From the NCBI RefSeq assembly GCF_030384885.1, contig NZ_CP128613.1: 64,000 nt of DNA. One strand, given 5' to 3'. Both the position numbers and the translations under genes were made by a program. Positions 16,801 through 55,133 of the stretch are shown piece by piece; positions within the stretch are counted from its first letter, which is position 1; each line of letters starts with the position of its first letter. The notes under the pieces were generated by a model, which did not search any database, was not told the DNA's origin, and saw only the letters and a program-made list of their open reading frames with translations. The stretch is from Escherichia coli (GTDB lineage Bacteria; Pseudomonadota; Gammaproteobacteria; Enterobacterales; Enterobacteriaceae).

Positions 16801-17089
16801 TCAGCGCTGTCTGACCGCCCATCGTTGGCAACACCGCGTCCGGACGCTCTTTTTCAATAATCTTGCGTACCACTTCCCAGTGAATCGGCTCGATGTAGGT
16901 CGCATCAGCCATTTCCGGGTCGGTCATGATGGTCGCTGGGTTGGAGTTCACCAGAATGACGCGGTAACCCTCTTCGCGCAGGGCTTTACATGCTTGCGCG
17001 CCAGAGTAGTCAAACTCACACGCCTGACCGATAACAATCGGGCCCGCACCCAGAATCAGGATACTTTTTATATCTGTACGTTTTGGCAT
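13871..17089 (-). CDS. carB: Carbamoyl-phosphate synthase large subunit
   Basis: 1072-aa [35 protein letters not shown]..., two ATP-grasp halves; immediately downstream of carA. Confidence 0.97.
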
Positions 17090-18255: not shown

Positions 18256-18710
18256 AACACCCTCCAGAGAATATTCACTCACTTTATTTGCATATTAATT
18301 CACAATGATGACGTAAATCAATGCAAATCTGCTTACCGACGAATTTCTGGCAAACGGCGGCATTCTGGAGATATGGGCGCTAAAAGTCAACTTAATGGCG
18401 GGATTTTTTATATTATTTTATAGCTCATGCATGTTTTACAGGCATTAAGCGACAAAAAGATCATATAACCCGTTCTGGAAAACGCTTGCGCAGCAAGAAG
18501 ATTGCATAAAATCAAAACGCGTAGAAAAAAGTGGACCAAATGGTCAAAATTTACATTAAAACAACAAAAACAGAAGCGAAAACATGTTATTTTTAGCATG
18601 TTCCATGCTTTTATAAATAAAAAACTCAAAATAAAAGGGCTAAAAATTAAAGCCCTTTACAATCAATATATTAAATATGTTATTTTTGCATCATCACAAA
18701 TGTTTTGTGG

Positions 18711-36878: not shown

Positions 36879-38372
36879 TTAGCCCCAGGTTACCGCTTCC
36901 GGTTTATCACCTCTGGCTTTCATTAATGAATCATTATCAATATCGGCTTTATACTTTAAGAACTTACCATACATTTGTTTTTCAATGTCTGGATTTTTAC
37001 CTATCTGATTAATGGTCTCAAAACGATCGGTTTTGAGGTTGTATAAGTACTTTGGCTTATTGTTACGATCGATGATCATTTTCCAGTCACCATCACGTAT
37101 CGCCCATTCGTCGGTTGGATCATCCTGGAATGGCATGTCAATTCCGAAGATTAATGGCTTTTCACGTTTTAGCGCCTTGTTCTCAAGGACAGGAACCAAC
37201 GATTCGCCATCAAAAGTGCGGTCCGTCGGTAATTTGAAGTTCATTATTTTCGCCAGCGTAGGCATCCAGTCCAGACCATAAACGGGAGTATCTGAAACCA
37301 TTCCCTTTGGAAGATGCTTTCCGTATTTAATAATCGCCGGAACACGGATGCCGCCTTCCCAAAGATTATCCTTGCGACCGCGTAATCCATCAGTTTCCCC
37401 TGCCAAATTCAGCTCATACACTTTGCGCGCTTCACGGGTTACTGGGCCGTTATCACTGGTAAAAATAACGATGGTGTTATCTTCTTCACCCATCGCTTTG
37501 ATTTTATCCAGTACTTTTCCAACCTGAGCATCCAGATAACTGATGTTGGCATAATATTCTCCTGTACCACGCCAGGGTTTATCCGCCCAGTCGCCATAAA
37601 ATAAATCAGGATGCTGCTTCTGATAGTCGCTCATATAATGTGAGTACATGTCGAGGTATTTTTTGGGCGAAGCCAGGGGACTGTGCACTTCGGTAAAAGC
37701 GACATAAAGGAAGAAAGGCTTACTATCCTTTTTGTTATCCAACCAGTTAACGACTTCCGAACTGACATACTCACCGCTCATTTTATCGGCTCGTGGAGTG
37801 GGTTGCCCGTTACGTAGCCAGCCTGTCGGGTAAACTATGCCATAACGCGGGCGTTCTTTAGCGTTATCTAGCGTGGCGTCGGTAACAAAGCCCGCCGTAT
37901 TAACCAGTGAGTAATCAAAGCCCATATCTTTTGCCTGAGGCTGATCGGTACGATCGCCGCCTGCATTCAGATGCAGCTTACCCATCATTGCCGTGTCGTA
38001 CCCTTGCGCTTTGAGTAGATTAGCAATCGTGAGTTCGTTACGCCCTAAGGCAACATCTTTGCCTGAAGGAATCCATGAGCGAATTCCAGCACGAAATGGC
38101 ATCCGGTCGGTTAATAGCCCAGCGCGTGAAGGTGAACTTAAAGGGGCGGGGGCATAGTAGTCAGTAAATTTGACCCCTTCCTGGGCAAGCCTGTCGATAT
38201 TAGGTGTTTTAACGATCTGATGACCATATGTTGCTAAATCGCCATAACCTAAATCATCCGCCATAATAATGACTAAATTAGGTTGTTTAGCCTCTGCGGC
38301 TAAGGCAGGACTAAAAGCATTCCCTGTGCAAACTGCAAGGCCGATCAAACTGGCCATTAACGTTTTCTGCAT
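36879..38372 (-). CDS. Periplasmic sulfatase, Ser-type (arylsulfatase family)
   Basis: 497-aa ORF with signal peptide and sulfatase N-terminal signature …NLVIIMADDLGYGDL…APAPLSSPSRAGLLTD… (S-x-P-x-R rather than C-x-P-x-R). Confidence 0.85.
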   Translation of the reverse strand: MQKTLMASLIGLAVCTGNAFSPALAAEAKQPNLVIIMADDLGYGDLATYGHQIVKTPNIDRLAQEGVKFTDYYAPAPLSSPSRAGLLTDRMPFRAGIRSWIPSGKDVALGRNELTIANLLKAQGYDTAMMGKLHLNAGGDRTDQPQAKDMGFDYSLVNTAGFVTDATLDNAKERPRYGIVYPTGWLRNGQPTPRADKMSGEYVSSEVVNWLDNKKDSKPFFLYVAFTEVHSPLASPKKYLDMYSHYMSDYQKQHPDLFYGDWADKPWRGTGEYYANISYLDAQVGKVLDKIKAMGEEDNTIVIFTSDNGPVTREARKVYELNLAGETDGLRGRKDNLWEGGIRVPAIIKYGKHLPKGMVSDTPVYGLDWMPTLAKIMNFKLPTDRTFDGESLVPVLENKALKREKPLIFGIDMPFQDDPTDEWAIRDGDWKMIIDRNNKPKYLYNLKTDRFETINQIGKNPDIEKQMYGKFLKYKADIDNDSLMKARGDKPEAVTWG

Positions 38373-38392
38373 AATTATTCCCTGATAAAAAA

Positions 38393-39154
38393 TTAGAAAT
38401 CATAACCAAGCATATAAATCATTTGATCGCCAAAGCCATCGTAGCCCAGCTTATTATCGAAATAACGCCACGTCACACTGGCTTTCCAGCGAGGATAGAA
38501 CTTCCAGGCAATAGTTAAACCGCCATTTAATCCGTTCCGGCCAAATTGCTGCTCCGTGTAAGCATCGTTCCTGTCCAGTTCTATTTCATTCCAGTTAGAT
38601 AAAACAAATTTTTCGTCAAATAACATAAATGGCAATACTGCTGTCCAGCCAACAACATAACCATTCCAACCATTCGTTTGACCATATTTAGCTGATACGT
38701 AGTCACCAGATTGATTATGTAATCCAATATACGGTTTAAAAAAGCCCCACTCGCCGTTCCAGCCGAGGTAACCGAATCCATAAAACATGTCCAGATCGTC
38801 ACCCCATGAGTTATCCCATTGGCCATAAATTTTGCCAAAGAATGTCATATCAGAGTCAAAGAGTCTGACATGCGTCATTGCTGAAACCGTATGATTTCTC
38901 CCTGCTACAGCATGATTGAGTACATTACTTTCATAAAATGAGTAAAATTCTGCTTCTTTAAAATTTACCCCAAAATCCGCAGTCACTTTCCATACTTCAC
39001 CACGGTGAGTGTTTACAAATCCACTATTCCAGTCTGCATAACCCGCATTTATTGAACCAAAGGTTCCTTTATATTCTAATGAAGAATATGCAGGAAAATG
39101 ATAGATAGCTGTTATCAGGGTACACGCAATAAGAAGTCGTCTTTTGGCAGACAT
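38393..39154 (-). CDS. Outer-membrane channel, Tsx (nucleoside-specific channel) family-like
   Basis: 253-aa ORF with signal peptide, aromatic-rich beta-barrel-like composition and C-terminal …MLGYDF resembling the Tsx C-terminus; first gene of the leftward three-gene cluster. Confidence 0.6.
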   Translation of the reverse strand: MSAKRRLLIACTLITAIYHFPAYSSLEYKGTFGSINAGYADWNSGFVNTHRGEVWKVTADFGVNFKEAEFYSFYESNVLNHAVAGRNHTVSAMTHVRLFDSDMTFFGKIYGQWDNSWGDDLDMFYGFGYLGWNGEWGFFKPYIGLHNQSGDYVSAKYGQTNGWNGYVVGWTAVLPFMLFDEKFVLSNWNEIELDRNDAYTEQQFGRNGLNGGLTIAWKFYPRWKASVTWRYFDNKLGYDGFGDQMIYMLGYDF

Positions 39155-39659
39155 ATAATATGATCTCCATTCATTGTTTTTATGGTTCCATAGAAATCAA
39201 TACATCAGATAATTCATTTTTATTAAGAATGACCAGGCCAGTATATTTAAAGATGACTATCGAAGCGTGATGAAGATCGCAGATTACTTTTGCGAACGGG
39301 CGGAGAGATATCGTGTTTCAGAAAATGTGTCTATTTTAAATATCACCCTTTGATTTATAGGCATTTTTCATGATGAACTTAGCATTGACTGCTGAACGTA
39401 TTTCTTTGTCTCTCTATAGTATTACACTAACCTTTAATAATTAATTTCCTTTAGCTATTCACTTTTGATAGAGGAAAACACCTTTTTTTGTGAATCCCTG
39501 ATATATTTAAGTTAAATAAATTGATGTATTGAAATATTATTCCGTAAAAATGCGAGGCGTCTTCAGAAAAAGAATTGATAAAACAGAAGTGAATTAAAAG
39601 CGCTGTATAATAGCGGCGAGTGCTTGAGGCTATCTGTCTCAGGCATTAGCTGAACGGCA

Positions 39660-39720
39660 GATAGAGAAAAGCCCCGAGTGATATTTTACCATCAACCCGA
39701 GGCCCCCTATATGCTGAACA
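39660..39720 (-). ncRNA. sokC: Sok-type antisense RNA (sokC) opposing the mokC translation start; approximate coordinates
   Basis: Placed by the known hok/sok architecture (antisense RNA overlapping the mok start region) and by offset from K-12 coordinates as I recall them; not verified by structure prediction. Confidence 0.4.
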
Positions 39721-39920
39721 CATGTAGAGTGCCTCTTACTGACCGTAAGGTCAAGGAGAAGAGAGCAATGAAGCAGCATAAGGCGATGATTGTCGCCCTG
39801 ATCGTCATCTGTATCACCGCCGTAGTGGCGGCGCTGGTAACGAGAAAAGACCTCTGTGAGGTTCACATCCGAACTGGCCAGACGGAGGTTGCTGTTTTCA
39901 CGGCTTACGAATCCGAGTAA
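39711..39920 (+). CDS. mokC: Regulatory overlapping reading frame MokC
   Basis: ORF starting MLNTCRVPLTDRKVKEKRA and running through hokC in the same frame, as in hok/mok/sok type I toxin-antitoxin loci. Confidence 0.75.
   Translation: MLNTCRVPLTDRKVKEKRAMKQHKAMIVALIVICITAVVAALVTRKDLCEVHIRTGQTEVAVFTAYESE
39768..39920 (+). CDS. hokC: Type I toxin HokC (Gef), small membrane toxin
   Basis: 50-aa peptide MKQHKAMIVALIVICITAVVAALVTRKDLCEVHIRTGQTEVAVFTAYESE recognised as Hok family. Confidence 0.9.
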   Translation: MKQHKAMIVALIVICITAVVAALVTRKDLCEVHIRTGQTEVAVFTAYESE

Positions 39921-40023
39921 GAGCAACGGCGGGGAGTGATCCCCGCCACTTTACAGGTGCTCGCATATCTTCAACGCACCCTGTTTTTTACCTGGCCTGC
40001 CCACGGGCAGGCTTTTGGGGAGG

Positions 40024-41154
40024 TTAGCGAGTCAGGTCGTCGAAAAACTTCTTCACACCATCAAAGAAGCTCTTTGAGCGCGGGCTGTTGTGCTCGCCGG
40101 TTGGGCCACCGAAGCTTTCTTGCAGCTCTTGCAGCAGCTGTTTCTGCTTCTCGTTCAGGCCTACCGGTGTTTCGACGACAACGCGGCACAGCAAATCACC
40201 CTGTGCGCCACCGCGGACAGACTTGACGCCTTTACCGCGCATACGGAACAGCTTACCGGTCTGGGTTTCGCCAGGCACTTTCAGTTTGACGCGACCATCA
40301 AGAGTCGGTACTTCGATTTCGCCACCCAGCGCCGCCATAGCGAAGTTGATCGGGACTTCGCAATACAGGTTGTTGCCTTCACGCTCGAAAATCGGGTGCT
40401 GTTTAACCTGAACCTGAACGTACAGATCGCCTGCCGGTGCGCCATGCTCGCCCGCTTCACCTTCGCCCGCAAGACGGATGCGGTCTCCAGTGTCCACTCC
40501 TGCCGGGATTTTAACGGACAGCGTTTTGCTGCGCTCAACACGACCATGACCATGACATTTGTTGCACGGATCTTTGATCAGCGTACCGCGGCCCTGACAG
40601 TGTGGACAGGTCTGCTGTACAGCGAAGAAGCCCTGGCGCATCTGCACCTGACCAGAACCATGGCAGGTCGGACAGGTCTGCGGCTGTGTACCTGGTTTTG
40701 CACCGCTACCGTGGCAAACGTCACACTCTTCCAGAGTCGGAATGCGGATCTCTTTGGTCACGCCACGTACAGCTTCTTCGAGGGTGAGCTCCATGTTATA
40801 GCGTAAATCAGCACCGCGCGCCGCACGTTGACGACCACGTCCGCCGCCAAAAATATCGCCGAAAACGTCACCAAAAATATCGCTGAAGTCTGCGCCGCCG
40901 CCAAAACCGCCGCCGCCCATGCCGCCTTGCTCAAAAGCAGCATGACCATACTGATCGTATGCCGCACGTTTTTGCGAGTCGGTCAGAACTTCATAAGCTT
41001 CCTTGATCTCTTTAAATTTCGCCTCGGCCTCTTTGTCACCCTGGTTACGGTCCGGGTGGTATTTCATGGCCAGGCGTTTGTAGGCCTTTTTGATTTCACG
41101 CTCTTCCGCTGTTTTGGAAACGCCTAAAATCTCGTAATAATCTTGCTTAGCCAT
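40024..41154 (-). CDS. dnaJ: Chaperone DnaJ (Hsp40)
   Basis: Start at ATG 41152-41154 ([37 protein letters not shown]…), J-domain HPD motif, Gly-rich linker, four CxxCxGxG zinc-finger repeats; 1131 bp. Confidence 0.97.
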
Positions 41155-41242
41155 CTTTTTTAAATTGCCCCTAGATGAATGCACGGGCGGAGAGGAAATT
41201 CCCCTTCGCCCGTGTCAGTATAATTACCCGTTTATAGGGCGA
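41155..41242 (-). ncRNA. Possible small RNA in the dnaK-dnaJ intergenic space (tpke11-like); existence uncertain
   Basis: Position only: from memory a small RNA has been annotated in the dnaK-dnaJ spacer in K-12; hairpin CCCGTGCATTCATCTAGGGG…CCCTTCGCCCGTG-type structures visible but not evaluated. Confidence 0.25.
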
Positions 41243-49651: not shown

Positions 49652-49780
49652 ACCGGATGCGGCGTGAACGCCTTATCCGGCCTACAAAAGCATGCAGATT
49701 CAATATATTGCAGAATTAACGTAGGCCTGATAAGACGCGCCAGCGTCGCATCAGGCGCTGAATGCCGGATTGTTACCCGG
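49652..49780. repeat. REP/BIME-type extragenic palindromic repeats
   Basis: CCGGATGCGGCGTGAACGCCTTATCCGGCCTAC and GTAGGCCTGATAAGACGCGCCAGCGTCGCATCAGGCGC units between yaaA and yaaX. Confidence 0.75.
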
Positions 49781-54984: not shown

Positions 54985-55014
54985 GGTTGTTACCTCGTTA
55001 CCTTTGGTCGAAAA

Positions 55015-55064
55015 AAAAGCCCGCACTGTCAGGTGCGGGCTTTTTTCTGTGTTTCCTGTACGCG
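55015..55064 (-). promoter_or_regulatory. thr operon attenuator (terminator hairpin between thrL and thrA)
   Basis: GC-rich hairpin (CAGCCCGCACC…GGTGCGGGCTTTTTT on the thr strand) immediately after the leader peptide. Confidence 0.8.

Positions 55065-55133
<69 letters not shown>

Follow-up and report, generated by a model that had tools for sequence, protein, structure and literature searches.

The uninterrupted hokC/mokC/sokC locus beside dnaJ in an Escherichia coli genome: a common and probably ancestral arrangement

Does a hokC gene that lies beside dnaJ without an IS186 element constitute a functional type I toxin–antitoxin system? The question is raised by positions 39660–40023 of the window (the whole 64,000-nucleotide stretch of E. 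coli DNA analysed here). The original prediction was that this uninterrupted copy may be functional, on the grounds that K-12 carries IS186 just downstream of hokC and that such insertions presumably inactivate its chromosomal hok loci. Our reading, to which we assign a probability of roughly 85% as a whole, is that the locus is the wild-type, probably ancestral Escherichia hokC/mokC/sokC—a complete hok/sok-type module equipped with every cis-acting RNA element known from plasmid R1—and that it would operate by the mechanism proposed below.

The coding part of the locus is as originally described. The toxin gene hokC occupies positions 39768–39920 (+ strand), encodes 50 amino acids (MKQHKAMIVALIVICITAVVAALVTRKDLCEVHIRTGQTEVAVFTAYESE) and is identical in nucleotide sequence to K-12 hokC. 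The mokC frame (39711–39920, + strand; 69 codons, with GAGG at 39699–39702) is an in-frame N-terminal extension of hokC; the two share a stop codon (39918–39920), and the extent of mokC is that of K-12 mokC (b0018). HokC matches the Pfam family HOK_GEF (PF01848) with E = 5.5e-24 over model positions 1–42 of 42, and its NCBIfam Hok-family match falls under the curated cut-off (46.8 vs 73 bits). By sequence, hokC is firmly identified as a Hok/Gef membrane toxin gene of the expected ~50 codons, and mokC as a mok frame that lies upstream of, and overlaps, hok and has a presumably regulated start. Downstream, hokC converges on dnaJ (40024–41154, − strand; stop codon 40024–40026). The spacer between the two stop codons, previously put at about 100 bp, measures 103 bp. 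The gene order across the region is nhaR, nhaA, a zinc-binding ORF, a sulfatase and an OmpK-like porin (all − strand), hokC (+), then dnaJ and dnaK (−). PGAP (RefSeq) names the 50-codon hokC CDS 'mokC, type I toxin-antitoxin system toxin MokC', both in the window and in L005–L010, L132 and L133; the longer mokC frame and the sokC RNA are both absent from the RefSeq annotation of these non-K-12 genomes.

The counterpart in K-12 MG1655—hokC (gef), mokC and sokC (sof), or b4412, b0018 and b4413—also lies beside dnaJ, and its hokC and mokC have the same coding sequence as those of the window. Between the −10 box and the first 3' hairpin, window and K-12 differ at three positions only (39619, 39632 and 39705). 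Over 39633–39943 the K-12 hokC/mokC/sokC sequence is matched with a sole mismatch, at 39705, which is also the one base that distinguishes the two sokC regions, promoter included. The 3' elements are the same in both strains once IS186 is removed from K-12 in silico. Over the tested stretch, the window is 100% identical to strain 2013C-4282, a human stool isolate.

Three sets of non-coding elements surround these frames: (i) an antisense RNA, (ii) the promoters and ends of the transcripts, and (iii) the mRNA structures. The Rfam model sok (RF01794) matches positions 39618–39770 with 114.6 bits (gathering score 59; E = 6.9e-27). Within this match lies SokC (39661–39719, − strand; ~59 nt), which was placed by gap-free alignment with K-12 sokC (16952–17010) and covers the mokC start codon and ribosome-binding site. 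Its predicted fold is a single-stranded 5' tail and a stem-loop followed by UUUU (z = −5.2). The sokC promoter (39726–39754, − strand), read from the sequence, consists of a −35 box TTGACC (39754–39749), a 17-nt spacer and a −10 box CACTCT (39731–39726). It is identical to that of K-12, its spacing fits the annotated 5' end of K-12 SokC, and its layout is like that of R1 (TTGCGC, 17 nt, TATCCT). The sequence features point to an antisense Sok RNA, transcribed from its own promoter over the mok start. Two weak Rfam hits, TEG147 and rpsL_pseudo, were far under their gathering scores and were dismissed.

For the hokC/mokC transcript, homology indicates a −10 box TATAAT at 39606–39611 (+ strand), with no good −35 box. 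The TATAAT is invariant in eight E. coli sequences and in E. albertii, and is placed like the TATGAT of R1 relative to the conserved 5' motif GCTTGAGG. Judged by the positions of the −10 box and of the conserved 5' motif GCUUGAGGC, and by analogy with R1, the mRNA would start near 39618. The predicted full-length mRNA spans 39618–40017 (+ strand; ~400 nt), its 5' end being set where the Rfam sok model begins, in keeping with the −10 spacing, and its 3' end at a hairpin followed by CUUUU. A strict consensus scan of 39400–40100 found a full sigma-70 promoter for neither transcript (the weak −10 box of sokC was missed), so promoters and terminator were assigned by homology and folding. The one terminator that the scan did call, a minus-strand hairpin within hokC, is irrelevant here.

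The spacer between hokC and dnaJ had been predicted to contain two GC-rich hairpins that form the fold-back element of the mRNA. The first, hairpin 1 (GGCGGGGAGTGATCCCCGCC; GGCGGGG-AGUGAU-CCCCGCC as RNA), lies where it was said to lie, at 39928–39947 (+ strand). It is a predicted stem-loop of the 3' UTR that forms an 8-bp stem in every fold, and R1 has an equivalent at the same place. The second (CCTGCCCACGGGCAGG) exists too, at 39996–40011 rather than 39982–39997, a displacement of 14 bases. Hairpin 2 with its CUUUU (39994–40017, + strand; stem 39994–40001/40006–40013) is, on the folding model, the likely intrinsic terminator of the hokC mRNA; it was left uncalled by the consensus scan because its T-run comprises just four T. 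Seven nucleotides separate it from the dnaJ stop codon.

Neither hairpin is the predicted fold-back element. In the fold of 39618–40017 (MFE −161 kcal/mol; z = −5.6 against shuffles), hairpins 1 and 2 stand alone, and the segment that folds back lies between them. In both the MFE and the centroid structure, positions 39620–39629 (GUGCUUGAGG)—part of the tac-like 5' element at 39618–39629 (+ strand; GAGUGCUUGAGG)—form a 10-bp helix with 39969–39979 (CUUCAACGCAC). The latter belongs to an fbi-like fold-back element at 39969–39981 (+ strand; CUUCAACGCAC, then CC), which is invariant in every E. coli and E. albertii sequence aligned and has the position of R1's CUGAAGCGCC, just upstream of the terminator. 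Folding of the transcript ends, proposed earlier as a check, thus predicts the expected 5'–3' pairing, with other partners. The remaining 3'-UTR segment (39948–39968, + strand) is predicted in the MFE structure to pair with the mokC start region (39709–39730); its equivalent in E. albertii contains a 4-nt insertion. An fbi position guessed by eye, 39954–39964, was dropped, as the MFE structure pairs the 5' end with 39969–39979 and 39948–39968 with the mokC start.

Shortening the mRNA from its 3' end changes the predicted fold. In silico truncations to 39976, 39968 and 39947 all form a helix between 39619–39630 and 39636–39647 (+ strand), a ucb-like alternative partner of the 5' end. Indeed, losing as few as four fbi nucleotides is enough to flip the 5' end into this local hairpin. 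The modelled structures correspond to the long-range tac/fbi lock and the tac/ucb rearrangement of the published tac/fbi/ucb/dcb model (PMC9841398). The same 5'–3' pairing is predicted for the hok mRNAs of E. albertii, Citrobacter, Pseudescherichia and the R1 type; in the last, nucleotides 1–10 are predicted to pair with fbi. Between R1 and hokC the clamp has changed on both sides with pairing kept (GCGC/GCGC to GUGC/GCAC). Within E. coli the aligned sequences agree in 98% of columns, which leaves too little variation for covariation. When the 5' 14-mer was paired with each 3' UTR in RNAduplex, the energies were no better than those of shuffled UTRs (z −0.1 to −2.6), a test that does not discriminate because short GC-rich duplexes arise easily. 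The matches listed in a genome scan with the 14-mer GGCTTACGAATCCG were mostly due to chance and included four useful loci (L044, L045, L064 and L077), a number too small for a formal test of covariation. The same 14-mer occurs on at least 16 contigs of the MAG 'Pseudomonadota bacterium C21_maxbin.011' (L013–L028), in a repeat translating as ...AAYESGVPLAGA...; this is probably a REP-like dispersed repeat that is unrelated to hok.

The resemblance to plasmid R1 hok/mok/sok (parB) extends over the whole locus: the same arrangement of genes, in which mok extends hok in frame, an antisense Sok over the mok start, a Sok −35 box that overlaps the hok ribosome-binding site, the GCUUGAGGC 5' motif, the 3'-UTR order (hairpin, spacer, fbi, terminator) and the predicted 5'–3' clamp. 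The R1 system differs in that it is plasmid-borne, mediates post-segregational killing, and is only distantly similar in protein and UTRs; its clamp sequences are GGCGC/GCGCC, as opposed to GUGC/GCAC in hokC. By homology to R1, we infer the transcript ends, 3' trimming, Sok-mediated decay and any killing that enter the following mechanism. The ~400-nt mRNA from near 39618 would be made in a closed form, with 39620–39629 paired to 39969–39979, and would be translationally inert. Slow trimming at the 3' end would remove the 3' element, and the 5' end would snap onto 39636–39647, remodelling the mokC start region. Translation of mokC would then permit translation of the in-frame hokC membrane toxin. 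In the trimmed mRNA, the mokC start would be bound by the short, unstable SokC (39719 to 39661, − strand), and this pairing would lead to destruction of the mRNA.

Absence of IS186 from the interval was confirmed by alignment with K-12. In MG1655, IS186A is annotated between dnaJ and hokC, as the original prediction states; the window is continuous across the insertion point, and IS-derived sequence is absent between 39920 and 40024. The two K-12 flanks of IS186A overlap at window positions 39932–39943, which represent the target duplication. The K-12 element thus sits within hairpin 1, at a distance of 22 bp from the hokC stop codon and with a 10–12 bp target duplication, where it parts the predicted fbi and terminator from the gene. 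The 22-bp distance agrees with the figure quoted in a CRISPRi preprint.

How common is the uninterrupted allele? A 201-bp query that spans the interval aligned without a break in 3814 of 5426 complete E. coli genomes (~70%). In the remaining matching genomes (1611/5425) the match breaks at the hairpin; the corresponding ~30% interrupted probably overstates the natural frequency, because laboratory derivatives of K-12 and B are abundant in the collection. In E. albertii NBRC 107761, hokC also lies directly beside dnaJ, without an IS. From these genome counts and from E. albertii it follows that the uninterrupted arrangement is the majority state and probably ancestral. In K-12 and in the interrupted genomes, IS186 in hairpin 1 would, under the proposed mechanism, sever the gene from its 3' clamp and terminator.

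Insertion has occurred in both orientations. The junction query in K-12 orientation was found in 821 genomes, and that in the opposite orientation (taken from strain Eco_23-3571, with the transposase gene inverted) in 943. Together these exceed the 1611 interrupted genomes by 153, a surplus that may come from a paralogous hok locus, likewise with an IS186, to which the queries match. For both orientations, insertion position and duplication in hairpin 1 are identical (equivalent sites L001 1371–2750 and L004 2054–3430). With its GGGG-N6-CCCC sequence, hairpin 1 is of the GC-rich target type described for IS186. PMC3045373 lists the relevant paper by its title (SaiSree et al. 2001), and at the lon hot spot both orientations are seen as well.

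The missing IS186 is therefore normal, and it is already known: an uninterrupted hokC was described in 1999 (Pedersen and Gerdes, Mol Microbiol 32:1090) in strain ECOR24, which, as cited in PMC3562002 and bioRxiv 10.1101/2025.08.07.668861, is like the window in carrying hok-family regulatory elements and serves as published precedent. PMC3562002 gives the view that IS186 in K-12 disrupts fbi and normal processing. The window re-identifies the normal allele of a textbook locus, which in itself matters little. With K-12 as the exception, annotation and reasoning derived from it, such as the view that chromosomal hok genes are inactivated by IS elements, are not transferable to most E. coli. Relative to other IS-free strains, the window offers nothing extra except one rare substitution in the 5' pairing element.

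Whether an IS-free locus is also a functional one is a separate matter. In favour of the original prediction, all parts of the module are present, intact and conserved. Against it, two papers citing Pedersen and Gerdes 1999 (PMC3562002; bioRxiv 10.1101/2025.08.07.668861) state that the IS-free hokC of ECOR24 showed neither post-segregational killing nor activation by rifampicin. These reports imply that the regulatory logic may exist without a lethal output. HokC itself is toxic upon over-expression. The companion claim, that the K-12 copy is inactivated by its IS, is itself in doubt: IS186 does separate the toxin gene from its 3' regulatory elements, but the CRISPRi preprint describes sokC knock-down as strongly deleterious in MG1655 despite the IS, which suggests that repressing sokC still makes the K-12 copy toxic. 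The literature equates neither IS-free with lethal nor IS-bearing with dead, and in light of the ECOR24 reports and the CRISPRi effect, the step from 'no IS' to 'functional' is only partly supported.

Several more specific accounts of the locus can be weighed against this background. The locus may be a functionally silent relic, transcribed and regulated like hok/sok, unable to kill natively and phenotypically indifferent to IS186. The reported ECOR24 results fit such a relic, as do the poor consensus matches of both promoters and the toleration of IS186 insertions in ~30% of genomes, the probably inflated fraction given above. So does the toxin sequence: Tyr47 would have to undergo A-to-I editing to become the second periplasmic cysteine. 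The UACG motif at its codon (TAC 39906–39908; motif 39906–39909, + strand) is a reported TadA editing site and is identical in K-12, where only 9% of hokC mRNA is edited (PMC12214031). On the other hand, over-expressed HokC is toxic, sokC knock-down is strongly deleterious even in K-12, and the mRNA hardly varies across E. coli and E. albertii, even in its non-coding 3' elements. That the mRNA is near-invariant while the DNA upstream of the −10 box diverges by ~25% argues for purifying selection on the RNA. We regard a silent relic as possible, though on balance unlikely.

The conservation of all RNA elements would suit a conditionally active module, responding to stress, starvation, phage or acting in anti-addiction, whose regulation is altered rather than abolished by recurrent IS186 insertion. 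Consistent with this, the sokC CRISPRi phenotype is stronger in minimal medium than in LB, and the site of IS186 is exactly the same in the two orientations, either of which is seen in hundreds of genomes. Yet the hairpin fits the known GC-rich target preference of IS186, so that recurrence at this site needs no selection; moreover, the CRISPRi result comes from a preprint, concerns an IS-bearing strain (K-12 MG1655), and was obtained with dCas9 at sokC, a position that also sits on mokC/hokC. Conditional activity is a tentative proposal, with the odds well against it. A bolder version is that IS-free loci are conditionally lethal when natively expressed, as the sokC CRISPRi phenotype hints, that repeated capture of IS186 is a selected rewiring or disarming, and that the substitution at 39619 is a second, independent route to the same end; this we consider highly speculative and quite improbable.

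The substitution concerns the second base of the predicted hokC mRNA (+2). Mutations in the sok promoter or in the fold-back elements had been named as what would speak against a functional locus; the sokC promoter is that of K-12, and the 5' pairing element does carry a rare change. Position 39619 is A in the window and G almost everywhere else: K-12 and E. albertii have G, as do seven further E. coli lineages, close relatives among them. Over 39606–39680, an exact match to the window is present in only 2 of 5400 E. coli genomes. The A removes a G–C pair near the outer end of the clamp, and the modelled duplex weakens by ~7 kcal/mol, from −18.5 to −11.6. Taken together, the near-private change, the G shared by close relatives and E. 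albertii, and the weaker predicted clamp raise the prospect that the locus is partly deregulated in this strain. Set against this, the full-length MFE structure still holds the 10-bp 5'–3' helix despite the A, a change at a helix end may be neutral, and the transcription start is itself predicted, such that the base at 39619 may not matter. Partial deregulation is, in our estimation, improbable, and we retain the wild-type, probably ancestral module as the best account of the locus.

Divergence from K-12 is concentrated further upstream. Across 39567–39605, the sequence that leads up to the −10 box, ~12 of 46 aligned positions (~25%) differ from the K-12-like allele; it matches strain AVS0151 and resembles E. 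albertii, and the sequence downstream of the −10 box is 98–100% conserved. This pattern suggests that a recombination event had its breakpoint at the promoter, or else that the allele is an old one in linkage with the porin/sulfatase island. The island itself consists of three minus-strand genes at 35505–39154, between nhaA and hokC, for a 414-aa 'IS1/IS1595 N-terminal zinc-binding domain' protein, a sulfatase and an OmpK-like porin. K-12 has no genes at this place; there nhaA directly precedes hokC. The porin flank is common to ~1214 of 5426 genomes, and PMC4182557 describes the module as variable.

Two observations concern the 3' end of the transcripts. Firstly, PMC3562002, a secondary source, gives the ECOR24 hokC transcript as ~330 nt, which would place its end at hairpin 1 rather than hairpin 2; a transcript that began at the predicted start and stopped right after hairpin 1 (39618–39947) would have this length. 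This species may be a 3'-processed form, or the transcript may have a 3' end other than that assumed here. Secondly, in the dnaJ direction (39905–40023, − strand), hairpin 2 has no U-run after it, and hairpin 1 is followed by GUUGCUCUU. Transcripts of dnaKJ may therefore run antisense over the hokC fbi and 3' UTR before they terminate, in which case IS186 in K-12 may also alter the dnaKJ 3' end.

Elsewhere in the window, the RefSeq annotation of an identical genome shows a 'type III effector' gene (27561–29033) adjoining rpsT, followed by a fimbrial cluster (29861–32022) in which frameshifts or truncations affect the chaperone and usher genes. Further Rfam matches that exceed the gathering score are the sRNA tpke11 between dnaK and dnaJ (41155–41232, − strand), ES003 (18303–18355, −), ES036 (CssrF; 49686–49728, +) and the thr leader (55010–55129, −), all of which are expected in such a chromosomal region.
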